A stretch of 64,000 nt of DNA, taken from contig OY760686.1 in NCBI GenBank assembly GCA_963663865.1, positions 285,670 through 349,669 of the forward strand, written 5' to 3'. The stretch is from Spirochaetota bacterium. Its GTDB lineage: Bacteria; Spirochaetota; UBA4802; UBA5550. This document shows, piece after piece, positions 6,957 to 60,789 of the stretch. The translations under genes were made by a program, and so were the position numbers. Below the pieces are notes generated by a model. It ran no database searches, was not told where the DNA came from, and saw only the letters and a program-made list of their open reading frames with translations. The stretch's first letter is position 1; every line of letters begins with the position of its first letter.

Positions 6957-7032
6957 AACATGGTATAAATAAAAACTAAAGGAGGAACGTGCGAGCACTA
7001 CTCCCCGGAGAATAGATGCCGCCCCAAACATC

Positions 7033-7671: not shown

Positions 7672-8762
7672 CAGCCATGAATCCTTTTTTCTTCCAGTCA
7701 CCGGTGAAGGCGTTTATGGGGTATGAATTCGCTCCTCTTCTAAAGCAGCTCTCGGCCCCTTACAGCCGCATAGCTGTCATCACCGGCCAAACGTCTGCCG
7801 TAAAATCTGGATTTATCGACGCGATCAAACCCGCCCTAAAGGACAAAGACCTTCTCTATTTCAGCGAAATCGAAGAGAACCCGTCCATCGAAACCGTAAC
7901 GAGGGGCGCTGGAGAGGTCAGAAAATTTAACCCCGACTGTATCCTCGCGTTCGGCGGCGGCAGCCCTCTTGATGCGGCAAAGGCAATCGGCCTCATGTCG
8001 GCGAACCCGCTTCCCTTCGGGGAGCTCATGACTTCTGACGCGCCAATATCCCCCCCTCCGATAATAGCAGTCCCGGGAACCTGCGGCACCGGAAGCGAGA
8101 TGAACGCCTACTCCATCATAACCGACACGGCTAAAATGGACAAGCTCAACCTTACCAGAGAGAACATGTTCCCACGCTTCGCTGTTCTCGAACCCTGTTT
8201 TCTGAATTCCCTGAGCGACGATACGAGGTTCTCAACCCTGTTTGACGCCTTCTCTCATGCATTCGAAGGCTTTGTATCAAAACGTGCGAATCCCTTTTCC
8301 GATGCACTGGCCCTTCACGCCATTGAAATCATTTTTTCAATTATAGCCGATTACAGCAAAGATATGGGCTTCCACACAGAGCGAGCGCTCTACGCGTCAG
8401 CCGTAGCCGGTGCAGTCATACTGCATACGGGAACGACCATTCTTCACTCACTTGGATACTACCTGACCAACAGGAGGGGCGTTCATCACGGCAAGGCAAA
8501 CGCGCTCCTTCTCGAAGGCTATATGAGCATGCTGCAGGACGGAGGAGCGTCAAAACTCGGAAAAATCCGCGAAATGGAGCGCTCCGCAGGCATAGACATT
8601 TGCAGATTTATCAGGGATTTCTATGGGTCCTCGGGCCTTGAAGGCTACGTCGACGCAGACGACTTTGATGATTTCGCCTCGTACTCGTTGAGCAAATCAA
8701 ACGCAGCGTCTACACCGGTAGCGCTGTCACCCGAGGTTTTAAAAAAGCATTACGCTGATTAA
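7665..8762 (+). CDS. iron-containing alcohol dehydrogenase family protein
   Basis: GGGSPLDAAKAIG Fe-ADH signature; 7-nt overlap with upstream gene suggests operon with FMN-protein and nitroreductase. Confidence 0.8.
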   Translation: MVTAMNPFFFQSPVKAFMGYEFAPLLKQLSAPYSRIAVITGQTSAVKSGFIDAIKPALKDKDLLYFSEIEENPSIETVTRGAGEVRKFNPDCILAFGGGSPLDAAKAIGLMSANPLPFGELMTSDAPISPPPIIAVPGTCGTGSEMNAYSIITDTAKMDKLNLTRENMFPRFAVLEPCFLNSLSDDTRFSTLFDAFSHAFEGFVSKRANPFSDALALHAIEIIFSIIADYSKDMGFHTERALYASAVAGAVILHTGTTILHSLGYYLTNRRGVHHGKANALLLEGYMSMLQDGGASKLGKIREMERSAGIDICRFIRDFYGSSGLEGYVDADDFDDFASYSLSKSNAASTPVALSPEVLKKHYAD

Positions 8763-8802
8763 AACTTCTTTTCTGCGGGGGGATAATGACCTCAAAACCC
8801 CC

Positions 8803-11800
8803 TCAGCCTGTCTGCTCAATACGTGAACCTGTCTGCGACTTGACAACCCTGATCTGAGAGGGGATGCGGTTTCTCAACTCCTGAACATGCGAGATGATCC
8901 CTACCATTCGTCCGCAGCGCACTTCGTCAAGTATCGAAAGGGCCCGGTCAAGAGACGCCTCGTCAAGGGTCCCGAAACCCTCATCAATAAAGACAGAATC
9001 AAGCTCGATTTCACCCGCCCTTGACTGAATAACATCGGCCAACCCCAGAGAAAGCGAGATGGAAGCAAGAAACTTCTCGCCGCCGGAAAGGGACTTAACG
9101 CTGCGCGGGCGCCCGCTGAACGAGTCAAACACCTCAAGTTCAAGGCCAGCCTGAGAACGTCCATCCTCAATCTCAGTGCTCACTGACATTGAATAGCGCC
9201 CCTCAGTCATCCGGTTAAAGCGAAGGTTTGCAGCGGAGGCAACCTCGCTGAGGTAAGCGCTCAGCACGAAGTTCTGAAAGTTTATCCTCCTGGGGTTTTC
9301 GCCGTTGAGGTCTCCGGCAATTTCATCAATACGGACAAGTTCATCCTGAAGACGGGCGGACTCGGCAGAGACTCGAGTGTATTCCGTGATGAGCCCCTGC
9401 AGCCTGTCGATTCTGGAGGCCGCTTCACGCACCTCGCGATCAGCGTCTTTTTTCTTCAGGTTCAAGGCTTCAACTGCCTCTCCAAGAACGCACATAACAG
9501 GTTCAGTTTTACCCTTCAGGTTTTCTTCAGATTGATGAAGCCTTATTTCAGCCTCCCGCAGGCTGTCGCGGAAGCGCTGTACCTTCTCCTGCTGTTCTTT
9601 AATCACGCTCTCAGGCCGGAAGTACCGTTCAGCTTCAGACGCCGAGTCAAACCCTTCTTTAGAACTGCCTTTTTCCGCTTTCTCGACGGCCTTTTCAACC
9701 GACACCCTCAGCCTGGCTGCCGCTTCAGAGAGCTCCCCTTCCCGGCCCTGAATCCGCTTAAGCTCAAGTCCCGCATTGTTCAGCTCAGCATCTATACTTT
9801 TAATTTCAACACCGGCCGCTTTCACCTTTTCTTCTGTTTCCAGAATGCGGTTCTGGATATTGCCAATCCCCTCGAGGTCAGCTTCAAGAGCCAGAGCTGA
9901 GGCCTCGGCAGAAGCCAGCCGGCTTTCAGCCGAAGATATTTTATCCTTCAAAAGGCCAAGCCTGGCTGCAGACTCGTTCAGTTGCACATCCTTTTCATCA
10001 AGACGGTGTCTCGCATCGGCTGCCAGGGAGCTTTTCTCTTCAAGAGCTTCAACTTCATGCTTTAGCTTTTCGAGCTGAACCTTCGCCTCATCCAGCCTGT
10101 CATCTTCATCAAGACCAAGCGCAGCGACAGCACCGTCGACCTCCAGAATCAGCGACTCAGCCTTCCTGAGCCTTTCTTCCGCCGCGGCAGCCGCCGCGAC
10201 ACTGCCCGCTATATTCTCCCGGACTGCGGCAAGCCTTTCGTCGTCGGTAAAAACACCTGCTCCGTCAGCCGGTGCAGGATGCGACAGAGAGCCGCAGACC
10301 GGGCATGGCCTTCCTTCCTCAAGGCCGGCCGCCAGGCCGGCAGCCGCGGCGGCCTCCTTCCTCGCGGTTAGTGCAGCCTCATCGGACCTGTTGACATCCA
10401 ACACCTTATTAATACGCGCTATATCTTCCCTTGCCCCGTCAGCTTCCGAAACATAGGATTTCCTCTTATCAAGCGCTGTTTCCCGTGCGGCTAAGCTTTC
10501 AAACAGTTTTTCCACCTTCACAAGCTCGTTGCGCTTTTCCCGCATTTCCTCAGGCGGGACTGAATTCTGAGTTATCAAAGCTCTCAGGGAAGCTGCCTCG
10601 GCGCAAAGCGCCTCATACTCATGCGAAGCCTTATCTGACTCTCCTCTAACGCTTTCAGCAACCGCCTTAAGCTCTGCGGCCTCCTTTCGCTTCTCAATGA
10701 GCGCGGACGATTTTGCGAGGAGCGGCCTCAGCCTGCCGAGCTCTGAGTTCCCTTCCGAAACGGCTTTCTCCAGCTTCGGCCGACGGGCTGAGGCTGCATC
10801 TGCCGCCTCGGACCTCCTGACAGCGGCGGCCTTTTCCTTTTCAAGCTCTGCAAGCCTTGATTCTGTCTCCACAAGCTCCTTTTTCAGCCTTGCGGCATCT
10901 TCGATAACCGGCCTCAGTTTTTCAGCCCTGATAACCCTCTGCAGCGCTGTCTCAATCTTTTCTATTTCAGGAATTTTTTCTCTAAGAACAGCAACTGCGT
11001 CAGCTCTGGCCTTTTTTTCTTCAAAGGCATTCTGAAGCGACCTTCCCTTTTCAAGCTCTATGAGCGCCACATCGTATTTTAGCTGTATTTGCGCTGCGGC
11101 ATCTTCCTTTTCCTTCAGCTGAAGCTTCAGCCCTTCAAGCTCCTCAGCGCTCCTTTCCGGGTTCAACTCTGATCCAAGCCTCTTTAAATCCGCAAGCTTC
11201 GAGTTAAGTGCAGCGCGTCCAGAATTTCTGAGCTCTCTCGCGCGATTCGAAATTTCCTCATGCGCTCTGACCGGGAAGAGCTTCATGAGGATGGCCCTTT
11301 TCTGATCGGTTGGAGCCACAAGAAAATTCTGAAACTCTCCCTGCGGAAGAAGTACTATTCTCGAAAACTCATCCTTTGAAAGATGAAGAAGCCTTTCAAC
11401 CTCGGCGTTGATCTCCGTCACCTTCCCTTCCACGGGAGCCCAGCCTCCGTCTCTGAAACGGAAAAAGCTGACGTTCTCAGGCTGCTCAACGGTCCCGCTG
11501 CCCCGCCTGGCCGGCCTGTCATGTCTCGGGACTCTCTTTATCTTGTATCGCGATCCTCTGATAGCGAAAGTAAACTCGGAGAATGGCTCGCTGTATTCAG
11601 GCATGTACCCTGAAACCGCGGAAGCAGGGTTTCTGGTCCCTGTAAGCGAACCATAAAGGGCAAACAGAATCGCGTCAAAAACCGTCGTCTTCCCGGAGCC
11701 GGTAGGCCCTGTAATCAGGAAGAAGTCGGCTTCGTTTCTAAATGAAACCGTCTGTTCGGCAGAAAAGGGGCCGAATCGGCATACTCTCAGACACTCAGGC

Positions 11801-11805
11801 CTCAT
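8803..11805 (-). CDS. sbcC: SbcC/Rad50-like ATPase subunit of SbcCD nuclease
   Basis: Walker A GPTGSGKTT, ~700-aa coiled coil with CPVCGS zinc hook, C-terminal LSGGEKF signature and D-loop; 4-nt overlap with sbcD. Confidence 0.85.
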   Translation of the reverse strand: MRPECLRVCRFGPFSAEQTVSFRNEADFFLITGPTGSGKTTVFDAILFALYGSLTGTRNPASAVSGYMPEYSEPFSEFTFAIRGSRYKIKRVPRHDRPARRGSGTVEQPENVSFFRFRDGGWAPVEGKVTEINAEVERLLHLSKDEFSRIVLLPQGEFQNFLVAPTDQKRAILMKLFPVRAHEEISNRARELRNSGRAALNSKLADLKRLGSELNPERSAEELEGLKLQLKEKEDAAAQIQLKYDVALIELEKGRSLQNAFEEKKARADAVAVLREKIPEIEKIETALQRVIRAEKLRPVIEDAARLKKELVETESRLAELEKEKAAAVRRSEAADAASARRPKLEKAVSEGNSELGRLRPLLAKSSALIEKRKEAAELKAVAESVRGESDKASHEYEALCAEAASLRALITQNSVPPEEMREKRNELVKVEKLFESLAARETALDKRKSYVSEADGAREDIARINKVLDVNRSDEAALTARKEAAAAAGLAAGLEEGRPCPVCGSLSHPAPADGAGVFTDDERLAAVRENIAGSVAAAAAAEERLRKAESLILEVDGAVAALGLDEDDRLDEAKVQLEKLKHEVEALEEKSSLAADARHRLDEKDVQLNESAARLGLLKDKISSAESRLASAEASALALEADLEGIGNIQNRILETEEKVKAAGVEIKSIDAELNNAGLELKRIQGREGELSEAAARLRVSVEKAVEKAEKGSSKEGFDSASEAERYFRPESVIKEQQEKVQRFRDSLREAEIRLHQSEENLKGKTEPVMCVLGEAVEALNLKKKDADREVREAASRIDRLQGLITEYTRVSAESARLQDELVRIDEIAGDLNGENPRRINFQNFVLSAYLSEVASAANLRFNRMTEGRYSMSVSTEIEDGRSQAGLELEVFDSFSGRPRSVKSLSGGEKFLASISLSLGLADVIQSRAGEIELDSVFIDEGFGTLDEASLDRALSILDEVRCGRMVGIISHVQELRNRIPSQIRVVKSQTGSRIEQTG

Positions 11806-12923
11806 AGCTCTTCCTCCTTTTTAAGGCTGCGGAAAAGCTCAACCCTCTCCTGACTCGGCTTTTTTCCGTATAGATATTCATGAAAGCTGCCGAAGTCTTC
11901 TTCTATCGTCCGAATATCACTGCCAGTATTTATCCTTATGCTTTCCTTTTTTGCCGCCTGAACCGCCTGCTGCCTGACAGACAGGATACCGGGAAACCTG
12001 TTTCTGAGAAGCTCAATTGGATTCATGACAAGCCCGCCGTCGGTGAGCTCGGCCTCCACATAGCAGTCCGTAAATTCCGCAAACTCCGGCGAGTTCAGAA
12101 GATCATGAAATGCCGCCCTGAGCCGTTTCATTTTGCGGACGGGTTTCAGAGGAATTCTTTCAACTTCCGCCGCACCCTTCTTAACTTCCACCGACAGAAA
12201 GCACTTCTCGTCGGACTCCTCTGAAAATGAATACTGAAGAATTGATCCTGAATAGTGCACTCTGTCTCCAGACCTCTGAGGCCTGTGCAGATGTCCCAGC
12301 GCTGTGTAGTCAAAGGGAGAGAACGCATCTGAATTCACCATACCGGAGCCTCCGACAAAGACCCTCTCGGAATCAGTGGTCTCGCCCCCCTGAGTAAAGA
12401 GATGAGCAGCACAAATATTTACAGCCGATGGATCGCAGGCGGCCTGTACCCTTTTTACTGCTTCCCGCAAAATATCATCCTGCGACAGAGCCGGTGTTTC
12501 CTCGTCTTCAGAGTGAGCTGAAAAAGCTCCGCTTCCGAAAAACGGAAAAAGATAAAAATGATTGTTCTCAATAACTACAGGTTTGACAATATCTTCATAG
12601 CGTGTGCGGATATAGACCCGTCCCAGCTTCATAATCTCCGCTCCGAACGACAGCCTTACAGCGTTGTCGTGGTTGCCTGGAATTATCAGCAGCGGGATAT
12701 CCGTTGCTGACCGCAGGTCATCAAGAAAACAGCTGAAGAGCTCCACTGCCTCGGGAGAAGGAATGCTTCTGTCATAGATATCGCCGGCAATAACCATGGC
12801 GCCGTAACCGCCTGAAGCGGCATTATCAATAATTTGAGAGAGAACAGCTTTCTGATCTTCAATCAGGCTTCTTTCATAAATAATCTTTCCAAGATGCCAG
12901 TCAGAGGTGTGCAGTATTTTCAT
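11802..12923 (-). CDS. sbcD: SbcD/Mre11-like nuclease subunit
   Basis: MKILHTSDWHLGK, GDIYD, GNHD calcineurin-like phosphoesterase motifs. Confidence 0.9.
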   Translation of the reverse strand: MKILHTSDWHLGKIIYERSLIEDQKAVLSQIIDNAASGGYGAMVIAGDIYDRSIPSPEAVELFSCFLDDLRSATDIPLLIIPGNHDNAVRLSFGAEIMKLGRVYIRTRYEDIVKPVVIENNHFYLFPFFGSGAFSAHSEDEETPALSQDDILREAVKRVQAACDPSAVNICAAHLFTQGGETTDSERVFVGGSGMVNSDAFSPFDYTALGHLHRPQRSGDRVHYSGSILQYSFSEESDEKCFLSVEVKKGAAEVERIPLKPVRKMKRLRAAFHDLLNSPEFAEFTDCYVEAELTDGGLVMNPIELLRNRFPGILSVRQQAVQAAKKESIRINTGSDIRTIEEDFGSFHEYLYGKKPSQERVELFRSLKKEEEL

Positions 12924-23997: not shown

Positions 23998-25224
23998 CTA
24001 TTCTTCATCCGGATATCTGGACTGTATCGCCCTGATTTCTTCAAGGCTTTCAAAAAATATTTCCACAAGAGCCGGGTCAAACTTCTTCCCCTTTAGCAGT
24101 CTGATCTCCTGAAGAACATCATCCTCGTTCCATGCTTCCTTATAAACCCTTTTAGACGACAGAGCGTCAAAAACGTCCGCGAGCGCGACAATCCTTCCAA
24201 ACAGAGGAATCTCTTCTCCCTTAAGCGGAAGGGGCTTTTCGTCCTCACCTGCTTCAAGAGTCTCCCCTGTCATGGGGTCTATTTTCCCTGGATATCCGGT
24301 TCCATCCCAATTTTCATGATGAGTCAGGGCAACCTCTGCGGCCACATCGTCAAGGATGGACTGTCTGTCTCTGAAAAGCCTGGCTCCAAGGTAGGTATGG
24401 GCCTTCATTATTTCATACTCTTCATCGGTAAAGCGGGCCTTCTTTTTCAAAATGGTGTCTGAAATAGCAACTTTGCCCGCGTCATGCAGCATCGATGCCA
24501 TTCTGAGAACATCCCTTGAAAGCATTACTTCCTTTTCCGGCAGGCCGGCCTTCTGCGCCCACTTTTCGTACAGAACAACCGAATATGAAGCAACCCTGTT
24601 AACATGCGCTCCTGTCTCCCGGGGGTCTCTCAGCTCAGCCATGAGAATCATTCTCAGGAGCAGCGTTCTGGTAAGTATCGCACGCTGAAGAACCATGCTT
24701 GCGCTACCGGCAAAATGCGAAATGTACATCTCGTCTACCGCGCTGAATGTCTTTATTTTGCCCTTTTGGTTTTTTGCGTTTATTATCTGAATTACACCGA
24801 GTATCTCACCGTTTACATTTTTTAACGGAACAGTCAGCATCGAAGAGGTCCGGTATCCTGATTTTACATCATAAGTCGGATCAAAGCGGTAAGGTGCTTC
24901 ACTGCTGATCGAATACACATCGGGGATGTTGAGCGGTTTTCCTGTGACAGCGACATACCCTGCTATGGAACCCTTGTTTATGGGTATCGTAAACAACGAG
25001 TATATGAGCTTTTTGCCGGGAGCAAGCTTTTTCTGCTGCGTCTCGTTCTGTGTATTGGAGAATACAAGCTGATCGCCATCCCTGCTGTAAATAGTCCCGG
25101 CATCTGCTGACGCGAACTTTCTTGCCTCCAGCAGAATCCTTTCAAGAAGGATATCAACGTCCTGAACCGTGTGCAGTTCGGAGCCAAGCCTGATTATCTC
25201 CTTTAATTTCTGGTTCTCATTCAT
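23998..25224 (-). CDS. GAF-domain HD-GYP cyclic-di-GMP phosphodiesterase
   Basis: N-terminal GAF; HD (MLHDAGK) and HHENWDGTGYP motifs. Confidence 0.85.
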   Translation of the reverse strand: MNENQKLKEIIRLGSELHTVQDVDILLERILLEARKFASADAGTIYSRDGDQLVFSNTQNETQQKKLAPGKKLIYSLFTIPINKGSIAGYVAVTGKPLNIPDVYSISSEAPYRFDPTYDVKSGYRTSSMLTVPLKNVNGEILGVIQIINAKNQKGKIKTFSAVDEMYISHFAGSASMVLQRAILTRTLLLRMILMAELRDPRETGAHVNRVASYSVVLYEKWAQKAGLPEKEVMLSRDVLRMASMLHDAGKVAISDTILKKKARFTDEEYEIMKAHTYLGARLFRDRQSILDDVAAEVALTHHENWDGTGYPGKIDPMTGETLEAGEDEKPLPLKGEEIPLFGRIVALADVFDALSSKRVYKEAWNEDDVLQEIRLLKGKKFDPALVEIFFESLEEIRAIQSRYPDEE

Positions 25225-49560: not shown

Positions 49561-49926
49561 TTAAAACCCATCCAACTTCATAATAACTGACAACGCTTTT
49601 TGCAGGTTGTCAATATCCTTTACTAACAAATCATATGCGTCTTTTACTTCGTTTTCAGATGCAGCTGCGGAAGCTTTTTCCAGCATCAATGCCGAGTTGT
49701 ACGCGGATTCACATGAAAAGTTTGAAATTGAGCCCTTTAATGTATGTGCTGTTTTTCGAAGCATTGGGAAATCAGAGTTATCAATGTTTGTTTTTATCAA
49801 CTTCATAAGCCTTGCGGAGTCCTCAATAAACAACTCGGCAAGTTCACGAAAAAGATCAAAATCATAATCAAGGCGTGAAGCAATGTCTTTCATGTCAATA
49901 ATTCTTGAAGCCTCTGCTCTATCCAT
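49561..49926 (-). CDS. Hpt (histidine phosphotransfer) domain protein
   Basis: LRKTAHTLKGSISNF with phospho-accepting His. Confidence 0.7.
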   Translation of the reverse strand: MDRAEASRIIDMKDIASRLDYDFDLFRELAELFIEDSARLMKLIKTNIDNSDFPMLRKTAHTLKGSISNFSCESAYNSALMLEKASAAASENEVKDAYDLLVKDIDNLQKALSVIMKLDGF

Positions 49927-49938
49927 TCCTCTGCTCCT

Positions 49939-51087
49939 TTAAAACTCTATTGATAAAAAAGCTATGTCATCATCTCTTTCGTCTATTGCGGTAAATGATT
50001 TTACATCATTAAGTATTGCTTCATTAAATGACTTCGCTGACAGAGCATGGTTCTTTTTTATTGATGCTGCAAGACGGCCAACTCCATACTCTTCCTTATC
50101 TCTGCCCTTTAGTTCCGTCACGCCGTCCGTGTATAACAGTAGTCTATCTCCCTCTGCTACAGCTATTGATTTCTGCTCATATTCGACATCATCTGCTATT
50201 CCAACAAACAGTCCGTATGCGTCCAGAGCCAGCACATTGCCGCTGGCTTTTCGGTAATATAGGGCCTTTGTATGTCCGGCATTAGAAAAAGTAATTCTCC
50301 CGGTCTCCTTATTATATATAACGTAAAAAGCCGTGATATACTGTCCGCCAATTAGAAATTTCAGCATTTCATTATTAATTACTGAAAAGAATTCACTCGT
50401 CTGCGTGTACCGTGGGGCATAAAGACTGAAGAGCATTTTCGACATTGACATTATTAATGCAGCTGGAATCCCGTGCCCGGTAACATCGGCTATCAGAAAT
50501 CCTGTTGTATAACTGTTAATTTCATAACAGTCATAATAATCTCCGCCAATATCCTCAATAGGAAGATAGGTGCCTGTAATATGAGGATATGTAACTCCAG
50601 GAAAGTCAACAGGGACTATAAACTTTTGTATCTGCTTGGCTATGTCGAGTTCGAACTCAATAAGTTTATTTTTTTCATAAAGTTCATCATGAAGATATTT
50701 AAGCCTCAAAAGAGATTGAACCCTTGCGACAAGCTCCTTTTCATTGAGAGGTTTGAGAAGATAATCATCTGCTCCTATTTGGAGCCCCTTAATCTTGGAG
50801 TTTAAATCATCGCTTCCGGTCATAAGTATAACTGGAATAAATCTCTCAGCGGAAATTTTTTTAAATCTTTGAAGAAATCCAAAACCGTCCAGCCTCGGCA
50901 TTATAATATCGAGCAGAACAAGATCGAATTGTTTTTTTGATAAAAGCTCAAGGGCCTCAATTCCATCCCCGGCTTCATCAACGCTTAGATTAAGTTGAGC
51001 GAGAGTTTTTATAACCATTGCTCTGTTCAACTTGCTGTCATCAACGACAAGAACGTTCCAGTCGGAATTCAGGTAGCTTAAATCCAT
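49939..51087 (-). CDS. response-regulator receiver fused to PP2C/SpoIIE-family serine phosphatase (RsbU-like)
   Basis: REC: VLVVDDSKLNR...LVLLDIIMP; PP2C blocks GDYYDCY, DVTGHGIPAA, LLLYTDGVTE. Confidence 0.85.
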   Translation of the reverse strand: MDLSYLNSDWNVLVVDDSKLNRAMVIKTLAQLNLSVDEAGDGIEALELLSKKQFDLVLLDIIMPRLDGFGFLQRFKKISAERFIPVILMTGSDDLNSKIKGLQIGADDYLLKPLNEKELVARVQSLLRLKYLHDELYEKNKLIEFELDIAKQIQKFIVPVDFPGVTYPHITGTYLPIEDIGGDYYDCYEINSYTTGFLIADVTGHGIPAALIMSMSKMLFSLYAPRYTQTSEFFSVINNEMLKFLIGGQYITAFYVIYNKETGRITFSNAGHTKALYYRKASGNVLALDAYGLFVGIADDVEYEQKSIAVAEGDRLLLYTDGVTELKGRDKEEYGVGRLAASIKKNHALSAKSFNEAILNDVKSFTAIDERDDDIAFLSIEF

Positions 51088-51303
51088 AATATCATCCGTT
51101 ATTGGTTTAAAATTACTCTTATGCTTTTCTCTCGTCTCTTGTAAAACAGTGAATGGTTATTGTTAATATCGGCATTTGACTATTTCTACAATAGTATCTA
51201 CGGCGTAATAAAGCAACAATTATAGTCAGGCAGTTTTACGCGTTATAAGGGTATAATATCGAGGTTGGTTTTATTTCCGCTTTTTGGGAATTGGTGTGTA
51301 GTA

Positions 51304-52881
51304 CTATTTATTACGGTAATCCATAAAGTTAATATTAAGTTTCTTAATTTTGTAATTGAGTATTCTCTTGGTTGTTCCCAGTCTCTGTGCGGCTTTTGTA
51401 ATATTACCGGAAGTAATTTTAAGATTATCAATTATGATATCCTTAATATACTGGTTTTCTATCTCATCAAGGGTCATGTTCCTCTGACTCACAGACTCAG
51501 CAATCTGCAGGGATGGAGGCAGATGAGTACTTCGTATAACATTCTCCTCGTTTATAATAACAGCCCTCTGAATGCAGTTTTCAAGCTCCCGAACATTGCC
51601 GGGCCAGTGATAGCTTACAAGCATATTTATGGCCTCCGAGCTAATTCTGTTAATCCGTTTTTTAAGTTCTGCACTGTACTTTTCGAGAAAGTAATCAGCC
51701 AAAAGCATTATATCAGCTTTTCGTTCACGAAGAGGAGGAGAATAGATTTGAAACACGTTCAGCCTGTAGTAAAGATCAAGCCTGAAATTTCCTTCTTCAA
51801 CTTTCTTTTCAAGATTCTGGTGAGTTGCGGCAATTATTCTAACATCAAGCGGTATTGTCTTTGTTCCGCCAATTCTCTCTATGCTTTTTTCCTGAAGGAC
51901 TCTAAGAAGCTTAACCTGCCCCTGCAGATTCAAGTCACCTATTTCATCCAGAAATATTGTTCCGCCATTAGCAAGTTCGAACCTCCCCTTCTTCTGTGAA
52001 TGTGCGCCGGTAAAGGCCCCTTTTTCATGTCCGAAGAGTTCACTTTCAATCAAGTTATCCGGAAGAGCGGCAATATTAACCTTAACATAGGGCATACCCT
52101 TTCTGTCGCTGTTCTCATAGACTTCATCAGCGATTATCTCCTTACCTGTTCCGCTTTCGCCGTTAATTAGAACTGTCGATTTTGTCGGTGCGACTAAAAG
52201 AATTTTCTCATATATATCTCTCATAAGCTGGGAATTTCCGATAAGCTTTCCGGATGATTTCGACCTGTTAAGCTTTATCTTTAAAAGCCTGTTCTCTTCC
52301 TTAAGCTCCTCTTCCCTCATTAATGCATGTCTTCTTTCGTCAACGGCCGTAGCAATCATGATGGCTACCGTTGATAGAATATTTAATTCCTCAAGAAAAC
52401 TCTCAGAATACTGTTTTTCCTTGTCTATAGATATTGTTCCAATAACACTTCCCTTTGTTTCAATTGGTACGCAAATAAAGACACAGTTGCCCTGTCCTCT
52501 GCCCTTTCTTGCACCGGTTTTATTCAAAAACAACGGCTCATTGTCTATCGAAGGTACCACTATGGGTTTACCAGTCTTAAACACTGTACCAATAACGCCC
52601 TCTCCTGGCTTATACATTCCCTTTTTTACTTCTTCACTTGTGTAGCCATATGAGGAATCAATATATATTCTTTCCTGCTGTTCGTTATAAACATTAATGG
52701 CTCCCCTTATTACTGAAAGCCTTTTCGCAAGCTGCTCCATAACCTGGTTAAGCATTGAGACAAGATCTTCTCCGGCAGAAAAAATTCTGCCAATCTTGTA
52801 TATCAGATCAGTAGATTCAATTTCCTTCTGAATTCGTTCGTAGAGTTCTTCGTTTAAGCTTTCTAAAACAGTGCCGCTCAT
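51304..52881 (-). CDS. sigma-54-dependent transcriptional activator with N-terminal GAF domain (NifA-like architecture)
   Basis: GAF region; AAA+ GESGTGKE; GAFTGA motif in [10 protein letters not shown]; C-terminal Fis-type HTH. Confidence 0.9.
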
Positions 52882-53082
52882 ATTATCCCGCCGAATTTAT
52901 AATACTTATTTATTTGCTAAGACTGTAATAGTCTTCTGCTTTATATTAAAGTAAACAGTGCCTGTTAAGTATAACGGTATTATGGTTGAGATGTCAGAAA
53001 AGGGGTATAAAATTATTGCTATGCCGGATATTTAAGATGATATTTTACATAATTGTAACTAAAAAGGCTCTATCCACCCTCC

Positions 53083-53118
53083 AAAAAACAGAAACAGGGC
53101 GTCAAACAGCCCTGTTTC
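53083..53118 (-). terminator. rho-independent terminator after outer-membrane-protein gene
   Basis: minus-strand hairpin stem gaaacagggc/gccctgtttc (10 bp), 8-nt loop, followed by UGUUUUUU. Confidence 0.5.
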
Positions 53119-53138
53119 ATGCTTGAGGCTTTATGAGA

Positions 53139-53933
53139 CTATATCGAACAGGATACACCGAATGTGGCATAGAACCTGTTGATATCCTTTTTATCGTTCA
53201 GATCATAATAGTAATCCTTCGACGGAACCACAACATAATGGAAACCGGCGCTGTAAGTAATGATCCCGCTGGTCACAGCAAAGTCTGCAGAAAAGTTTAT
53301 ATCGCTTATTCCAGCTGTATCGAATGCAGCGCTTTTGTAATAACCAGCCATAACACCAAGGTCAAGAGAGGCTGCATCCTTAACCAGTTCAAAGGAATGA
53401 CTTCCTCCGGCCTGAATGTAGAAGTCCTTGCCCTTATCAATGCCTTCACCAATATCTCCTGTGTAGTAATCATGGTTGTAAACTACTGTTGGAGACAGCG
53501 GAAGAGTATCGAAAGTTAAAGAAACCGTTCCGGTAGCAAAAGAATAATCATTTTCCCAAAGCATGTAGTACCACACGCTTGCTCCCAGAGTAACAGCATC
53601 AGCGAAGGTGTATGAATAATCTGCTCCAAAGTCAGTTGCCTGAAGGTCCTTAACGGAATCACCGACATTGACACCATCAAAAAGATAATCCTCTGAAAAC
53701 TCGCCGCTTACAGTTAGCGAAAGGCCGCTTCCCATTACATCGAAGGACGCACTTGGGAAAAAAGCTCCGTCATTCTGAAACCAGTAAGAACCTCTCCACA
53801 GGTAGTTGCTCATATAATCCACGCCTACCGTAATTCCCAGAGAATTATCCTCTTGTGCACTCGCTGAAACTGCTGTCATTGAGATTGAGGCTACAGCTAA
53901 AAGACTCATAAAATAAACTTTAACTTTTTTCAT
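53139..53933 (-). CDS. outer-membrane beta-barrel protein (porin-like), last gene of amt-glnB cluster
   Basis: signal peptide MKKVKVYFMSLLAVASISMTAVSASAQE; alternating amphipathic Tyr/Gly-rich strands; AAAGGAG SD. Confidence 0.6.
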   Translation of the reverse strand: MKKVKVYFMSLLAVASISMTAVSASAQEDNSLGITVGVDYMSNYLWRGSYWFQNDGAFFPSASFDVMGSGLSLTVSGEFSEDYLFDGVNVGDSVKDLQATDFGADYSYTFADAVTLGASVWYYMLWENDYSFATGTVSLTFDTLPLSPTVVYNHDYYTGDIGEGIDKGKDFYIQAGGSHSFELVKDAASLDLGVMAGYYKSAAFDTAGISDINFSADFAVTSGIITYSAGFHYVVVPSKDYYYDLNDKKDINRFYATFGVSCSI

Positions 53934-53950
53934 TTTTTTCTCCTTTGTTT

Positions 53951-53977
53951 ACGGTAAGGGAGTAACTCCCTTACCGT
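53951..53977 (-). other. 12-bp perfect GC-rich hairpin with 3-nt loop between glnB stop and OMP start (RNA processing/stability or attenuator element)
   Basis: acggtaagggag-taa-ctcccttaccgt read directly; no U-tract follows on minus strand (AAACAAAGGAG then OMP ATG). Confidence 0.6.
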
Positions 53978-53984
53978 TGTATTT

Positions 53985-54326
53985 TTAACCTATAGCGATT
54001 TCGCCCTCTTCGCCTGTTCTTATCCTTATACATCTCGTCAGTTCAGTTATAAATATCTTACCATCACCAATATTGCCTGTTCTGGCACCTTTAATAATAG
54101 CATCGATAGTCTTCTGAACAAAATCTTCATTTACCGCTACTTCGATGCGAACTTTTTTTATCAGATTTACTTCAGTATCAACACCTCTGTAAGTCTCAAT
54201 ATATCCACCCTGCTGACCGCAGCCAAGAGAGTTTGTTACTGACATCTTTTTTATGTCCGCCCTGAATAAAGCCTCTTTAACATCAGTAAGCTTTTCCGGT
54301 TGTATATAAGCTGTAATAAGTTTCAT
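53985..54326 (-). CDS. glnB: nitrogen regulatory protein P-II (GlnK/GlnB)
   Basis: [20 protein letters not shown] and T-loop [11 protein letters not shown] with modifiable Tyr; directly downstream of amt. Confidence 0.9.
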
Positions 54327-54337
54327 TATGCACCTCC

Positions 54338-55681
54338 TTACTGAACATTAAATATCTGGAATGAAGAATAAGCTTCGCTTCCATGCTCTTCAACATCAAG
54401 GCCGCGTAATTCTTCTTCTCTGGATACTCTGAGTCCAACAGTCTTCTTAATCACCAGGAATACAATTCCCATTGTCAAAGTAGCCCACAGGAATACTGAA
54501 CCTACACCAAGAGCCTGTACTCCAAGAAGTCCGAATCCGCCGTCATTGATAAGCCCTTTTACTCCCTCGCCTGCAAATTTTGGATCAGCAAAAACTCCGA
54601 CAAGAATTGTTCCGACTGCGCCGCATACGCCATGAACTGAAATTGCACCAACCGGATCATCAATCTTTAATTTGAAATCGATGAACTCAACCGACAGTAC
54701 AACAATAACTCCCGATATTGCGCCAATTGCGATAGCGCTTAGCGGCGAAACAGAAGCGCATCCGGCTGTTATTCCAACAAGTCCCGCAAGAGCTCCATTA
54801 AGTGTCATTGACACATCCGGCTTACCGGATTTAATCCAAATAGTAATCATTGCCATCACAGCTCCTGCTGCTGCTGCAAGGCTGGTATTCATGGATATAA
54901 ATCCTATAGACAGGGATTCTCCAGATACCGTACTACCCGCGTTAAAGCCGAACCATCCAAACCAGAGTATAAAAACACCAAGCGCTGCAAGCGGCAAGTT
55001 GTGTCCTGGAATAGCCTTAGGTTTACCATCAGGTCCATATTTACCCGTTCTTGGACCGAGAACCAGAGCACCTACAAGGGCCGCCCATCCTCCAACCGAG
55101 TGAACAACAGTTGAACCGGCAAAATCCACAAACCCTTTCTCAGAAAGCCATCCGCCACCCCATATCCAGTGGCCGGATATCGGATACACTACGGCAGATA
55201 TCACAAGACTATACAGCAGATAGGAAACGAATTTTGTTCTTTCTGCCATAGCACCTGATACAATGGTTGCTGCTGTTGCAGCAAAGACTGCCTGAAAAAG
55301 CCAGTATGCGTACTGCCACAGGCCGTCCGGATTTCCGGGATCACCAGAAGATACCATAAAATTTGACCAGCCAAAGAGGCCGTTTACGGTATCTCCATAC
55401 ATCAAGGCGTAACCTATAACAAAGAAAACAAGTGATCCTACTGAAAAATCCATCACATTCTTCATTATGATATTACCCGCATTCTTCGCCCTGGTAAAAC
55501 CAACCTCAACCATTGCGAAACCGGCCTGCATAAAGAAAACAAGAAATGCCGCGACCAGTGTCCAAACTACATTGATTGCCTTCACCGACGAGGCTGTTTC
55601 AGACGCTGCTTCCTGCGCAAACAGAGGAGCAGCAATTGCGATCAGCAGTCCCGCGATGATAAATCTTTTAGACGTTCTCAT
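54338..55681 (-). CDS. amt: ammonium transporter Amt
   Basis: signal + 11 TM; Amt/MEP blocks ([26 protein letters not shown], twin-His region). Confidence 0.9.
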
Positions 55682-55720
55682 AAAACCTCCTTAAAAAAGT
55701 TACTCTTTACCTGTAGTTAA

Positions 55721-55736
55721 AGCAGGTTCCGTGCCA
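55721..55736 (-). promoter_or_regulatory. sigma-54 (-24/-12) promoter for amt-glnB-OMP operon
   Basis: minus strand TGGCAC-GGAAC-CTGCT (consensus TGGCAC-N5-TTGCW; GG and GC correctly spaced); ~40 nt upstream of AAGGAGG SD and amt ATG. Confidence 0.5.
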
Positions 55737-55924
55737 GGTTTTATAAATATGTATTTAAATATTCTTTTTATTATTGTTCAGTGAAGGATATCCTGATTTT
55801 TGACACCTTTTAACATGCACGCAACATTAATAAGTTCAAAAAAGGAACATATAGATTCTAAAGAAGAAGTTGAAATTGAAGGAAAGATTAAAGCACCTAT
55901 AATTTGATACATTTATGTGTCATT

Positions 55925-55962
55925 TGCAATAATATAATACATATTTGTATTATATTATTGCA
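55925..55962. promoter_or_regulatory. 16-bp perfect inverted repeat with 6-bp spacer (tgcaataatataatac-atattt-gtattatattattgca); candidate enhancer/UAS for the sigma-54 amt promoter
   Basis: sequence read directly; ~230 bp upstream of predicted amt TSS; contains TGC-N10-ACA resembling NifA-type TGT-N10-ACA sites. Confidence 0.35.
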
Positions 55963-56023
55963 GAGAATAATCTGACTCTTTATACTACGCATTGTGCTAA
56001 ATTTAAAGTTGTTTTTGATGGTT

Positions 56024-56061
56024 CAATAATAAAATAACCCCCTTTTTTTGAAGGAGGTTAT
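56024..56061 (-). terminator. rho-independent terminator ending the gyrB-gyrA(-small ORF) transcription unit
   Basis: minus-strand hairpin ATAACCTCCTT-caaaaa-AAGGGGGTTAT (11 bp, one mismatch) followed by UUUAUUAUUG. Confidence 0.5.
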
Positions 56062-56099
56062 AATAAAATCATTTAGGACGCTTTTTTGTTACATTTTTG

Positions 56100-56282
56100 T
56101 CATTCTTCAATTCTGTGATCATCCGGCAACTTGTTAACAGTGGATTTCATTGCGAAAACAATGCCAAAGAATATTGACGCTATATATAATACCGCGCCAT
56201 ACAACAGGTTGATATCAATAAAGAAAAAATATATACATCCGCCCAGAGAAAGAACTGAAAAAAGAAGAAGCAGTTTATCCAT
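56100..56282 (-). CDS. candidate 60-aa two-TM small membrane protein downstream of gyrA
   Basis: ATG at 56282 preceded by GAGGTG 5 nt upstream; MDKLLLLFSVLSLGGCIYFFFIDINLLYGAVLYIASIFFGIVFAM...; no homology recognised. Confidence 0.3.
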   Translation of the reverse strand: MDKLLLLFSVLSLGGCIYFFFIDINLLYGAVLYIASIFFGIVFAMKSTVNKLPDDHRIEE

Positions 56283-56331
56283 TTCACACCTCAATATTTC
56301 GGTCCGTTGAAATGAAACAACGGACAAATTC

Positions 56332-58788
56332 TCAATCAGATATTACAGCAAAATCCGATACTGAATCATCATCACCAATTCCAAGAAGCTTAATGCCGGC
56401 AGCAGTTCTTCCCTGAGTGGAAATATCGCTGCTAAGAAGCCTTATAGTCATTCCGCTTTTTGAAATAATAATTATCTCATCATCAGGAAAAACAGAGCGT
56501 ATACCGGCTGATAGACCATGCTTTTCAGTTTTTACATATGTCATTCCTTTTCCGCCGCGGCCCTTATTGATAAAGTTATCGTATTTTACCTTCTTTCCAT
56601 ATCCGTTATCGGTAATTACGAAAAGTTCAGAATTCTCCTTCACTACATCCATTCCGATTATACAATCACCTTCTTCTAATCGCATACCGATAATTCCGGC
56701 AGCGGAGCGTCCCATTGAGCGCATCTTCAGTAGATTTGTTCTGAGTATAAGCCCATGCCTGGAGGCAATAACTATATCATCTCCCTTCGATACGACCTTA
56801 ACATCTACAAGCTCATCATCTTTCTTGAGGCTTATGGCTATTATTCCGCCTTTTCTTGTGTTGACAAACTCTGTTACATCTGTTTTCTTTAGAATACCGT
56901 TTTTAGTTACCATACAAAGATATACGTCCGTCGATGAATCATCAATTGAACATATCTCAGTTATCACTTCTCCTGATGCAAGGTTGATTATTCCTTTCAT
57001 CGACTTTCCCCGGCTGGTTTTTGACGCAACCGGTACCTCGTACGCTTTCATGGCAAAAATCTTTCCTTTATTTGAAAAGAAAAATAGAGTATCGTGAGTA
57101 GAGGCAATTGTCATCATTCTGACAAAATCTTCCTTCTTGTTGCTTGCACCAATAACACCTTTTCCGCCTCTCCTCTGTTTTTTATATGTGTCAATAGGCA
57201 TTCGGCGAATGAATCCGTCATTGGTCAGGGATATTACCATATCCTCATCTGCTATTAAGTCCTCGGCGTTAAACTCAGTCGAGTCGTTGCCGCCTTCCTG
57301 TATCTGAGTTCTTCTCGAATCGTTGAATTTTTCCTTAACATCGATAAGCTCTTTTTTAATTATGTTAAGAATTTTGGTTTCGCTTTTAAGAATAGATTTA
57401 TATTCCTCTATGAGCTTCAAAAGCAACTTCAGTTCATCAACAATCTTTTTTACTTCAAGGCTCGTCAGTCTCTGAAGCCTCATCTCAAGTATTGCCTTGG
57501 CCTGAATCTCAGATAAACTGAAAGTTTTTATAAGAGTTTTAGATGCCTCGTCAGGAGTTTTCGAAGATTTTATTATTCTTATTACTTCATCAATATTATC
57601 GAGGGCGATCTTTAGCCCTTCTAAAATATGAGCCCTTTCCTCGGCTTTCTTAAGCTCATACTGTGTTCTTCTATATACTACTTCGCGCCTGTGTAATATA
57701 TAGTGATTGAGTATTGATTTAATGTCGAGTATCTTCGGAACTCCGTCTACTATAGACAGCATTATGATTCCGTAAGATGTCTGAAGCGATGTGTTTTTAT
57801 AAAGCTGGTTTATAATGATACTACTGTTGGCATCCTTTTTAAGACCAATATAAATTCTCATGCCCGTACGGTCAGACTCGTCTCTTAGCTCTGAAATTCC
57901 ATCTATTACCTTGTTATTTACGAGTTCTGCGATTCTCTGAACAAGAGTGGCTTTATTAACCTGATATGGAATTTCAGTAATTATAATACACTCACGCCCC
58001 CGCTTGGTCTCTTCAATTGTGAGGTTACCTCGGACCTTAATGCTTCCTCTTCCGGTCGTGTAGGCCTTTATAATCCCCTCAGAACCCATTATTGTAGCTC
58101 CGGTTGGGAAATCAGGGCCCTTAATATGCCGCATAAGCTGCTTAACAGTTATTTCCGGATTATCAATTAAAGCTATCGTTCCGTCGACTATCTCTCCCAG
58201 ATTATGCGGCGGTATCTTTGTCGCCATGCCAACTGCAATACCGTCCGAGCCGTTTACCAGAAGATTTGGATACGCGGCCGGAAGAACTACAGGCTCCTTC
58301 CGCGTATCATCAAAGTTAGGCGTAAAGTTAACAGTTTCCTTGTCAATATCCCTTAATAATTCCTCAGCAAACTTATTAAGCCTTGCCTCTGTATATCGGT
58401 AAGCAGCTGCGGGGTCACCGTCAACAGAGCCAAAGTTTCCCTGGCCGTCTATGATTGGCATTCTCATTGAGAAATCCTGAGCCATCCTTACCATCGTATC
58501 ATAAACAGCAGTATCTCCGTGCGGGTGGAAATTACCAATAACCTCACCAACAATCTTCGCTGACTTAACAAAGGGCCTGTCGCTTCTCCATGCCCTCTCA
58601 TTCATCGCATGAAGGATTCTTCTGTGAACTGGCTTCAAACCGTCTCTAATATCTGGAAGAGCTCTTCCTATGATTACGCTCATTGCGTAATCGAGATATG
58701 CTCCTCTCATCTGGTCTTCTATTTCAACATCGAGGACCTTTTCAAACAGGTCGCCTGATTCGTTTCCATCATTTGTTTTCTTTGGCAC
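56332..58788 (-). CDS. gyrA: DNA gyrase subunit A
   Basis: active-site/QRDR region AAYRYTEARL; C-terminal beta-pinwheel repeats; 818 aa. Confidence 0.95.
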   Translation of the reverse strand: MPKKTNDGNESGDLFEKVLDVEIEDQMRGAYLDYAMSVIIGRALPDIRDGLKPVHRRILHAMNERAWRSDRPFVKSAKIVGEVIGNFHPHGDTAVYDTMVRMAQDFSMRMPIIDGQGNFGSVDGDPAAAYRYTEARLNKFAEELLRDIDKETVNFTPNFDDTRKEPVVLPAAYPNLLVNGSDGIAVGMATKIPPHNLGEIVDGTIALIDNPEITVKQLMRHIKGPDFPTGATIMGSEGIIKAYTTGRGSIKVRGNLTIEETKRGRECIIITEIPYQVNKATLVQRIAELVNNKVIDGISELRDESDRTGMRIYIGLKKDANSSIIINQLYKNTSLQTSYGIIMLSIVDGVPKILDIKSILNHYILHRREVVYRRTQYELKKAEERAHILEGLKIALDNIDEVIRIIKSSKTPDEASKTLIKTFSLSEIQAKAILEMRLQRLTSLEVKKIVDELKLLLKLIEEYKSILKSETKILNIIKKELIDVKEKFNDSRRTQIQEGGNDSTEFNAEDLIADEDMVISLTNDGFIRRMPIDTYKKQRRGGKGVIGASNKKEDFVRMMTIASTHDTLFFFSNKGKIFAMKAYEVPVASKTSRGKSMKGIINLASGEVITEICSIDDSSTDVYLCMVTKNGILKKTDVTEFVNTRKGGIIAISLKKDDELVDVKVVSKGDDIVIASRHGLILRTNLLKMRSMGRSAAGIIGMRLEEGDCIIGMDVVKENSELFVITDNGYGKKVKYDNFINKGRGGKGMTYVKTEKHGLSAGIRSVFPDDEIIIISKSGMTIRLLSSDISTQGRTAAGIKLLGIGDDDSVSDFAVISD

Positions 58789-58872
58789 TTTTTTACTCCG
58801 TATGATCCTAATCTTAAATTGTTAATTTAATTTTTGCACATAAGCTACATACATATTATAAATCATTCAGAA

Positions 58873-60789
58873 TCAAAGATCCAGATTCTGAACGTTTTTT
58901 GCGTTCTCTTCAATAAACTTTCTTCTTGGCTCAACAACATCTCCCATCAGCACTGAGAAGACATTTTCCGCTTCAATATCGTCATCTATTTTTACCTTCA
59001 GCATTGTTCTACGCGCCGGATCCATTGTTGTTTCCCAGAGTTGTTCTGGATTCATTTCTCCAAGTCCTTTATACCGCTGTATACCTATGTTTTTCCCCTT
59101 ATGCTGATTAATAATTTTATCTCTCTCCGCATCAGAATACGCATAGAAAGACTCCTTTCCCACTTTTATGCTATATAGAGGAGGTTGAGCAATGTACAGA
59201 TATCCATTGTCAATAAGGCCTTTTAAGTATCTAAAGAAAAAGGTCAACATTAGAGTCCGAATATGAGCTCCATCAACATCAGCGTCAGTCATGATGACAA
59301 TTTTGTGATATCTGGCTTTAGAGATATCAAATTCCTCATCTCCAATTCCGGTCCCAAATGCTGTTATCATTGACCTGATTTCTTCATTTGAGAGCATTTT
59401 ATCAAGACGAGCCTTTTCAACATTGAGTATTTTTCCTCTCAAAGGCAAAATCGCCTGAAAAGTTCTATCCCGACCCATCTTTGCTGAACCGCCGGCTGAA
59501 TTTCCCTCAACAATAAACAGCTCGCACTTTTCAGGCTCACTGCTTGAGCAGTCTGCCAGTTTTCCCGGGAGTGAATTGCTTTCCAGAGCGTTCTTCCGCC
59601 TCGTAAGATCTTTGGCTTTTTTTGCAGCTATTCTTGCCAATGCGCTCTGCATGCATTTCTCAATTATCTTTTTTGCTTCCTGAGGGTTTTCCTCCATGTA
59701 GAAACCAAGGTTCTCATTTGTTGCGGATTCAACTATTCCTTTAACCTCGCTGTTACCGAGCTTCATCTTAGTCTGACCCTCAAACTGAGGATTGGGAATT
59801 TTAACGCTGATTACCGCAACAAGTCCTTCTCTAACATCGTCTCCTGAAAGCTGACTGATATTTTTATCCATCTTATTTTTTTTCAGCGCATCATTTATAA
59901 CTCGAGTTAAGGCCGCTCTGAAACCAATCAGGTGAGTACCTCCCTCACGGGTGTTAATGTTGTTTGCGTATGTGAAAACGGTTTCAGAGTACGAATCTAT
60001 ATACTGCATTGCTATTTCAATTTCAATATTATCTCGGTTTGTTCTGAAGAATATAGGCTTTTTAACAATAGCTGTTTTTGTTTCGTTGAGATGTTCAACA
60101 AAGGATATTATACCGCCTTTAAAATGAAAAATGCTTTCGTTTTCTTTTCCGGCCTTTTTCTTGTCATCTCTTTCATCAGTCAGAATTATAGTAATTCCTG
60201 CATTTAGAAATGCCAGTTCCCTGAGTCTTTTTGCAAGTGTATCAAAATTAAACTCGGTTTCTTCAAAAATCTCTGCGTCAGGCCAGAAATGAATATTTGT
60301 TCCTGTTTTAGCAGTTTTCCCAGTCTCTTTCATCGGAGCTACCGGAATGCCTTTTTTATAGCTTTGTGAAAAAACTTTGCCTTCCCTTAAAACCTCGACT
60401 CTCATATCGGTTGAAAGCGCATTAACAACTGAGACTCCTACTCCGTGAAGGCCTCCCGATACCTTGTAAGAGTTATTATCAAACTTTCCACCGGCGTGAA
60501 GTTTTGTTAATACAACCTCAAGTGCTGAAACTTTATATACTGAGTGTGTTTCTGTAGGAATTCCCCGGCCATTATCCCTTACCTCTATGGAATTATCCTT
60601 ATGTATAATCACTTTAATATCTGTGCAATGTCCAGCAAGGGCTTCATCTATTGAGTTATCCACAATCTCATAAACAAGATGATGGAGTCCATGTGTATCT
60701 GTTGAACCAATATACATGGCCGGTCTTTTTCTTACCGCCTCCAGGCCTTCAAGAACCTGAATATTATCTGCGTTGTATTTTTTTGTCAT
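58873..60789 (-). CDS. gyrB: DNA gyrase subunit B
   Basis: GHKL ATPase, Toprim (EGDSAGG) and [12 protein letters not shown] motifs. Confidence 0.95.

Follow-up and report, generated by a model that had tools for sequence, protein, structure and literature searches.

Which DNA signals control an ammonium transporter operon in a spirochaete, and which protein reads them? The question is raised by a stretch of 64,000 nucleotides from a Spirochaetota bacterium (contig OY760686.1 of GenBank assembly GCA_963663865.1), referred to here as the window. On its minus strand the genes for an ammonium transporter (amt), a P-II protein (glnB) and an outer-membrane protein (OMP) follow one another. The DNA upstream of amt (55682-56061) contains a sequence that resembles a sigma-54 promoter and, further upstream, a long perfect palindrome. 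A preliminary description of the window had read the palindrome as an enhancer with NifA-type sites in its arms. Our analysis indicates that the interval is likely to be the complete control region of the amt-glnB-porin operon, and that it would consist of a sigma-54 promoter and two activator-bound dyads, the distal one of which forms the centre of the palindrome.

For comparison with the window, homologous contigs were fetched with homologues of Amt and of a sigma-54 activator encoded downstream of the operon. Nine loci (the window, L081, L093, L095, L097, L099, L100, L101 and L102) carry a four-gene cassette that consists of amt, the P-II gene, a gene for an OMP of 251-284 amino acids and a gene for a GAF activator of one sequence group, called group A here. 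The cassettes are embedded in nine different flanking contexts. Additional amt loci from Treponema and Spirochaetaceae were taken from a genome-contig scan with Amt, in which the matches had at most 62% identity and came from many phyla.

The promoter element TGGCACGGAACCTGCT (TGGCAC-GGAAC-CTGCT) is present on the minus strand at 55736-55721, and its 3' end is 40 nucleotides from the amt ATG (55681), in agreement with the preliminary description. The GG doublet of the -24 region (55735-55734) and the GC doublet of the -12 region (55723-55722) are correctly spaced, and the register TGGCAC-N5-TTGC is followed with a single departure, a C for T before the GC. With zero mismatches, the pattern TGGCAC-N6-TGCW has this one match in the window. 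When up to one mismatch is allowed there are four matches, compared with 5.2 expected by chance, so that the evidence for the promoter comes from its position and conservation and not from the pattern count. In each of the nine cassette loci, an element TGGCAYG-N4-yTGC begins 51-59 nucleotides before the amt ATG; the probability of one such match arising by chance in about 400 bp is approximately 0.003. The same -24/-12 element is also found at the Treponema and Spirochaetaceae amt loci, and no sigma-70-like match was detected on the minus strand of the amt control interval. The earlier proposal that a sigma-54 promoter drives amt-glnB-OMP is well supported by this recurrence of the element at an equivalent position. 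Transcription is predicted to start near 55710, and a ribosome-binding site AAGGAGG can be read at 55686-55692 on the same strand.

No further credible sigma-54 promoter was found in the window. A -24/-12-like string with one mismatch at 24485-24500 is situated within a coding sequence (23998-25224) and is probably a chance match. The gene that contains it codes for the second GAF protein of the window, in which a GAF domain is combined with an HD-type phosphohydrolase domain.

Palindromic motifs upstream of amt were counted by combining every 4-nucleotide half-site with its reverse complement at gaps of 0-10, giving 2816 patterns, over nine amt upstream regions. The pattern TACA-N4-TGTA, which is equivalent to TAC-N6-GTA, ranks first and occurs in eight of the nine regions, and the next-best pattern reaches four. 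In dinucleotide shuffles of the amt regions, TACA-N4-TGTA has a mean of 0.07, and the best of all patterns has a mean of 3.7 and a maximum of 5. The same pattern also ranks first upstream of the group-A activator genes, where it is exact in 6 of 11 (0.00 in shuffles). With one mismatch allowed, the dyads upstream of amt are situated 165-240 bp upstream of the -24 element, usually as pairs 30 bp apart. Their symmetrised consensus is TG(A/G)TACA-W4-TGTA(T/C)CA, and the flanking G/C is conserved in 33 of 42 cases, though it played no part in the selection of the sites.

The window contains such a pair. When the 64 kb were scanned with a matrix from which the window had been left out, the best match was the proximal dyad TGACACATAAATGTATCA (minus-strand reading) at 55905-55922, with 17.4 bits, and the second-best was the distal dyad TAATACAAATATGTATTA at 55935-55952, with 14.8 bits. 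The two are 30 bp apart. The third match (53043-53060) lies upstream of the activator gene. The fourth, TGTTACATTTTTGTCATT at 56087-56104, is a possible third dyad of the intergenic region that overlaps the stop codon of a 75-residue open reading frame (ORF); it is weak, since its 11.8 bits are about equal to the maximum expected from the null. Chance cannot explain this clustering of the top matches. Two other TACA-N4-TGTA sites of the window, at 1500 and 33752, adjoin genes unlinked to nitrogen and were treated as chance occurrences.

The geometry of the pair is that of an enhancer. Measured from the first base of the -24 TGGCAC (55736), the centre of the proximal dyad is about 177 bp upstream and that of the distal dyad 207 bp upstream; relative to the predicted start, the two centres are at about -205 and -235. 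Pairs are present in five other cassette loci, and also in four loci with activators of a second group (group B, see below). Relative to the amt ATG, the dyads are at -268/-238 in the window, -269/-239 in L097, where the proximal dyad thus occupies the same position (-238/-239), -258/-228 in both L099 and L102, -280/-250 in L100 and -272/-243 in L095. The spacing is 30 bp in all of these except L095, in which it is 29 bp. Between the dyads and the promoter of the window is an AT-rich spacer (55737-55904) with a G+C content of 25.6%, compared with 42.8% for the whole window. This confirms the composition noted earlier, and the spacer is presumed to be the looping region on the basis of the sigma-54 mechanism.

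The distal dyad is the centre of the palindrome at 55925-55962, which is the longest perfect hairpin-type repeat of the window. The preliminary description was right that this 38-bp inverted repeat is perfect, but arms of 17 nucleotides around a spacer of 4 describe it better than the arms of 16 and spacer of 6 given there. The outer 13 nucleotides of each arm, TGCAATAATATAA, are specific to the window and have no counterpart in the relatives, in which the orthologous sites are dyads of 12-18 bp. Comparison of the sequences indicates that the conserved recognition element is the centre, TACA-N4-TGTA, and not the arms, and that the 38-bp palindrome is the distal dyad, extended symmetrically in this lineage to an unusual length. 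The placement of the palindrome in an enhancer is therefore upheld by the comparative evidence, but its treatment as a single element is not, because at least two sites are present and the proximal dyad had been overlooked.

Directly upstream of the -24 element is AATATTTAAATACATATTTATA (55742-55763), which resembles the palindrome core and is 82% complementary to 55928-55949. It contains a dyad with one mismatch, TACATATTTATA, and the relatives do not have AATATTTAAATACATATTTATA at that position.

A perfect repeat of this length might also have nothing to do with an enhancer and act structurally or in the transcript, as a terminator, a repetitive extragenic palindromic (REP)-like repeat or an RNA hairpin. 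Besides being the longest perfect hairpin repeat of the window, the palindrome folds as RNA with -22.4 kcal/mol (z = -4.3), which would suit such a role. Against this, its stem has only 16% G+C and is followed by a U tail on neither strand, and the terminator prediction did not pick it out. A true terminator of the upstream unit is predicted at 56034-56061 on the minus strand, 75 bp further upstream, so the palindrome lies outside the gyrB-gyrA-75-residue ORF transcript. The palindrome has a single copy in the window, where no second copy of its arm was found at up to two mismatches, and neither it nor the leader matches an Rfam family, the only hits being sub-threshold microRNA-hairpin noise. 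The preliminary description had stated that a terminator or REP-like repeat would speak against its proposal, and on the evidence of the window both readings are rejected. Because its centre also fits the motif shared across genomes, we regard a purely structural role as very improbable.

The NifA-type upstream activator sequence proposed earlier depends on half-sites in the arms of the palindrome that resemble TGT-N10-ACA, the known NifA site (PMC7294313). The protein data give this proposal some footing, as both the best family model and the closest solved structure of the window's activator are those of a NifA. The DNA does not. The spacing TGC-N10-ACA that had been given for the arms is a miscount of TGC-N11-ACA, and the amt intergenic region (55682-56099) contains no TGC-N10-ACA and no TGT-N10-ACA. 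What the relatives share is the centre, a TAC-N6-GTA dyad; none of them has the arms. The match of the activator to the NCBIfam NifA model (TIGR01817) scores 477.9 bits, below the cut-off of 528.85, and covers only residues 26-454, so that the helix-turn-helix (HTH) region is outside it. A NifA-type site in the arms is scarcely credible, and at the level of sequence this reading is refuted.

The sites are instead like those of AnfA and VnfA in both sequence and layout, as TACA-N4-TGTA is the same as TAC-N6-GTA and two dyads are present. AnfA of Rhodobacter capsulatus uses a distal and a proximal TAC-N6-GTA dyad upstream of a sigma-54 promoter; both are required for full activation, and both are bound in vitro by this GAF-AAA+-HTH activator (PMC7294313). 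For VnfA of Azotobacter the proposed site is GTAC-N6-GTAC (PMC7294313). In the window, the distal dyad is an exact TAC-N6-GTA, and the proximal dyad reads CAC-N6-GTA.

The presumed enhancer-binding protein is a GAF/sigma-54 AAA+/HTH_8 protein of 525 residues, encoded on the minus strand at 51304-52881. Pfam matches and alignment show that it carries the GAFTGA motif, the Walker motifs and the HTH. Its N terminus is a GAF domain and not a receiver domain; a single GAF domain was found, and the N-terminal region has no cysteines. Relatives with 55-70% identity are Spirochaetota proteins. It is the only sigma-54 AAA+ protein of the window, as had been stated in the preliminary description, and the absence of an NtrBC pair noted there also holds, since neither a receiver-domain NtrC nor a second sigma-54 AAA+ gene was found in the window.

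A related dyad, AGTTACAATTATGTAAAA, is situated 176 nucleotides upstream of the activator gene at 53043-53060, and is the third matrix match mentioned above. It has the form GTTACA-N4-TGTAAAAT, referred to here as the T flavour. Of the 11 group-A activator genes that were examined, 10 are preceded by a dyad of this flavour, including some at loci that have no amt; L102 has none at up to one mismatch. Described more fully, the element is asymmetric, (G/A)TTACA-N4-TGT(A/T)AAA(T/A), and occurs 115-360 nucleotides upstream of group-A activator genes (window, L081-L085, L093, L095, L097, L099 and L101), with the AAA of the right flank in 10 of 10. The presence of a dyad upstream of the activator gene suggests autoregulation.

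A -10-like box may coincide in part with the asymmetric element. Reading the TGTAAAAT flank as such a box with a matching -35 gave different results in different loci, and a consistent -35 did not emerge.

Taken together, the adjacent GAF activator is the best candidate for the protein that binds the dyads. Its gene is linked to the operon in nine contexts, a dyad accompanies the activator gene even where amt is missing (L082 and L083), the geometry is that of an enhancer, and the type of site is one documented for such activators. The preliminary description had already singled out this protein as the only enhancer-binding protein of the window, and the recurrence of the cassette, the -24/-12 position and the dyads in nine contexts supports it as the likely partner.

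Several observations weigh against a sigma-54 control region that is read by this activator. No rpoN was found among the window ORFs scanned, although the presence of sigma-54 in the genome is implied by the GAFTGA activator. The matrix null has a maximum of 11.8 ± 2.4 bits and reached 19.1 at the highest, so that a lone match of the size seen here could arise by chance. The distal dyad of the window does not have the conserved flanking G/C, and L081, the closest relative, has a site with one mismatch only. Two further points concern the identity of the binding protein. The T flavour, GTTACA-N4-TGTAA(C/AAT), occurs before genes that lack a canonical -24/-12 element, namely the activator genes, gltB in L095 and L101, and amt in L092. 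In addition, a second group of activators, group B (L001, L024, L028, L029 and L042), has a recognition helix (GITERxMGLRV) that differs from that of group A, and yet these proteins adjoin amt promoters with TAC-N6-GTA pairs 30-31 bp apart, which means that the dyad could belong to another, shared factor.

These last two points are the case for an alternative that accepts the -24/-12 promoter but assigns the dyads to some other nitrogen regulator shared across the phylum; the GAF activator would then bind elsewhere or act from solution. Opposing it are the dyad that accompanies the activator gene in loci without amt (L082 and L083), the distance, pairing and 30-bp phasing of the dyads, which are enhancer-like, and the experimental demonstration of TAC-N6-GTA sites for GAF activators (PMC7294313). 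Nor does the cassette contain a second conserved regulator gene. We consider this alternative unlikely, though it deserves some weight. The T-flavour sites could be explained either by the same protein acting at other types of promoter (autoregulation and gltBD) or by a second factor that shares the core.

Some details of the loci concerned may be recorded. In L092 (metagenome contig Ga0272440_1009952), which carries an amt-glnB-OMP operon and whose Amt is 75% identical, GTTACATTAGTGTAAAAT at 3005-3022 is about 115 nucleotides upstream of the amt ATG and there is no -24/-12 element, so the same dyad occurs there with a promoter that is not of the sigma-54 type. In L095 (7480-8000) and L101 (7503-8000), gltB-gltD is divergent from amt, and GTTACA-N4-TGTAAC is present at -141/-142 from the gltB ATG; a canonical -24/-12 element was not found upstream of gltB in either locus. 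The regulon may include glutamate synthase, by way of another type of promoter. The group-B GAF activators, from Spirochaetaceae and Treponema metagenome-assembled genomes, have the NCBI name "NifA" and are encoded directly upstream of a sigma-54-dependent amt; they are likely to be general nitrogen regulators rather than nif-specific ones.

For the preferred reading, a sigma-54 promoter controlled by the adjacent GAF activator, a mechanism can be outlined whose steps are taken from established sigma-54 biology. Protein binding, the signal and the direction of regulation are what we infer in it, starting from the observed sequence elements, their conservation and phasing, and the linkage of the genes. 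Sigma-54 holoenzyme would form a closed complex at 55721-55736. The one-component GAF/AAA+/HTH activator would bind as dimers to the dyads at 55905-55922 and 55935-55952, and the dimers would nucleate an oligomer that contacts the holoenzyme as the AT-rich spacer loops. ATP hydrolysis, coupled through the GAFTGA loop, would then open the promoter near 55710. The NifA-like GAF domain would sense the nitrogen status, most likely through 2-oxoglutarate and/or the P-II protein of the operon itself.

The amt gene (54338-55681) encodes an ammonium transporter of 447 residues (Pfam PF00909, E 3.7e-135), and it is followed by the gene for a glnB/glnK-type P-II protein of 113 residues (53985-54326, Pfam PF00543) and that for the OMP of 264 residues (53139-53933), all on the minus strand. 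AlphaFold predicts the OMP with a predicted local distance difference test score (pLDDT) of 88.9 and a predicted template-modelling score (pTM) of 0.81, as an N-terminal helix or signal peptide and 12 strands. With its signal peptide, closed antiparallel barrel and aromatic-residue end region, the model has the features of an outer-membrane beta-barrel. Foldseek matches it with probability 1.0 to OmpG, PcoB, FapF and an oligogalacturonate porin, at template-modelling scores of 0.5-0.6, so that its likeness is to monomeric porins and channels.

By sequence, the OMP may be a distant relative of the Gcw_chp family (PF09694). The window protein itself has no match to this family, 3 of 33 members of the OMP family do (best E 3.5e-7), and one OMP homologue has a precomputed match. 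The OMP family is small, with 36 clusters found, and the protein of a sister strain is 96% identical. No usable publication turned up in literature searches for amtB-linked porins or for Gcw_chp/TorF.

The preliminary description had considered the co-transcription of an OMP gene with amt-glnB unusual. The arrangement is not peculiar to one genome. The eight other cassette loci and a further four from metagenomes all have the OMP gene downstream of amt-glnB, which makes it a conserved member of the cassette. A metagenome scan with the OMP gave seven loci, most of which end before the promoter. In the window, a GC-rich hairpin with perfect arms of 13 nucleotides and no U tail (53951-53977, minus strand) separates the P-II and porin genes, and an intrinsic terminator is predicted only after the OMP gene (53091-53118, minus strand). 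Conserved co-transcription of amt-glnB-OMP is likely, since the OMP gene is kept downstream, the hairpin has no U tail and the true terminator follows the OMP gene. A stable hairpin is present in the glnB-porin gap in eight of the nine cassette loci, with no conservation of sequence, and its role may be to set the ratio of amt/P-II to porin, either by partial termination or by an effect on mRNA stability.

The order on the minus strand of the window is gyrB, gyrA, the 75-residue ORF, its terminator, the control region, amt, the P-II gene, the OMP gene, the second terminator and the activator gene, after which come a response regulator with a SpoIIE domain, an Hpt protein and mnmG. L082 and L083 have the activator at the gyrA locus and no amt. 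When 49561-60789 of the window is compared with L081-L083, the amt-glnB-porin block lies between gyrA and the activator gene in the window and in L081, and is absent from L082 and L083, in which genes for a HAD hydrolase, a CsgG/TPR protein and a radical-SAM protein surround the activator gene. Judged from these arrangements, the block behaves as an insertable cassette near replication-origin genes (yidC, mnmE, mnmG and gyrBA). Just 3' of gyrA, a hydrophobic ORF of 59-75 residues with no family match is found in the window (56100-56327), L081 (1523-1717), L082 (4615-4818) and L083 (4680-4859). Elsewhere in the window, 6001-12000 has a G+C content of 49-53%, compared with about 42% for the remainder, and includes an SbcC/Rad50-like ORF of 1000 residues (8803-11805); this segment may be foreign DNA.

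The results provide a code of cis-regulatory elements for nitrogen control, open to testing, in a spirochaete lineage that is largely uncultured: a promoter, two phased TAC-N6-GTA dyads and an activator that accompanies them. Where proteins of these genomes bear the label "NifA", they are probably general regulators of ammonium assimilation with a DNA specificity like that of AnfA and VnfA, and a conserved, uncharacterised outer-membrane barrel emerges as a likely AmtB partner that might serve as an ammonium porin. As the principle is that of textbook sigma-54 biology, the value lies in annotation and regulon prediction and not in a new mechanism. More broadly, many Spirochaetota may handle ammonium assimilation with a portable cassette of amt, P-II, a dedicated 12-stranded outer-membrane channel and a one-component NifA/AnfA-like GAF activator, in which the activator reads paired TAC-N6-GTA sites, replaces NtrBC and touches sigma-70 promoters (its own gene and gltBD) through GTTACA-N4-TGTAAC, with the porin as an ammonium gate co-regulated with AmtB. 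We put this forward tentatively, as a proposal with somewhat less than an even chance of being correct.

Among known systems, the enterobacterial NtrC enhancers of glnAp2 and glnK-amtB have two dyads about three helical turns apart that nucleate a looping oligomer. The activator there, NtrC, is a response regulator that is phosphorylated and works with NtrB, and it recognises TGCACC-N5-GGTGCA. The window shares with this system a nitrogen-regulated sigma-54 promoter for amt/P-II genes and two phased dyads, as predicted from sequence; it differs in having a GAF sensor, no kinase and sites that are further upstream (about -205 and -235). NifA is the closest protein family by sequence (GAF and AAA+), and it too is a one-component GAF sensor of nitrogen status. 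In contrast, its defining DNA site is absent here, the model score is below the equivalog cut-off, and the recognition helix of the window activator, TTKRILNYK, differs from the ITERxMGLR of the NifA-labelled spirochaete group.

The likeness to AnfA and VnfA consists of a GAF-AAA+-HTH activator and of distal and proximal dyads of the same type upstream of a sigma-54 promoter. This comparison concerns the site and the layout. The target here is amt-glnB-porin, and thus ammonium uptake instead of nitrogenase, and the phylum is a different one; the scanned ORFs of the window include no nif, anf or vnf genes.

The kind of system is already known, and it would be a fairly ordinary nitrogen-control switch; the additions made here are the dyad motif that is now defined, the portable cassette of four genes and the possible ammonium porin. 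A review on Leptospira interrogans (PMC12655853, citing Hu et al. 2017) does not report the amt-glnB-porin-activator arrangement, and describes EbpA, the GAF activator of that species, as FhlA-like with two GAF domains, compared with one here; the two proteins were compared by description. According to the same source, EbpA and RpoN drive amtB and two lipoprotein genes. The resemblance extends to a spirochaete GAF sigma-54 activator with no cognate kinase, to amtB expressed from a -24/-12 promoter, to genes for envelope proteins of unknown function that are driven together with it, and to binding of the activator upstream of its targets (PMC12655853). On these features, the EbpA-RpoN-amtB system of Leptospira appears to be the closest functional precedent for the control region described here.

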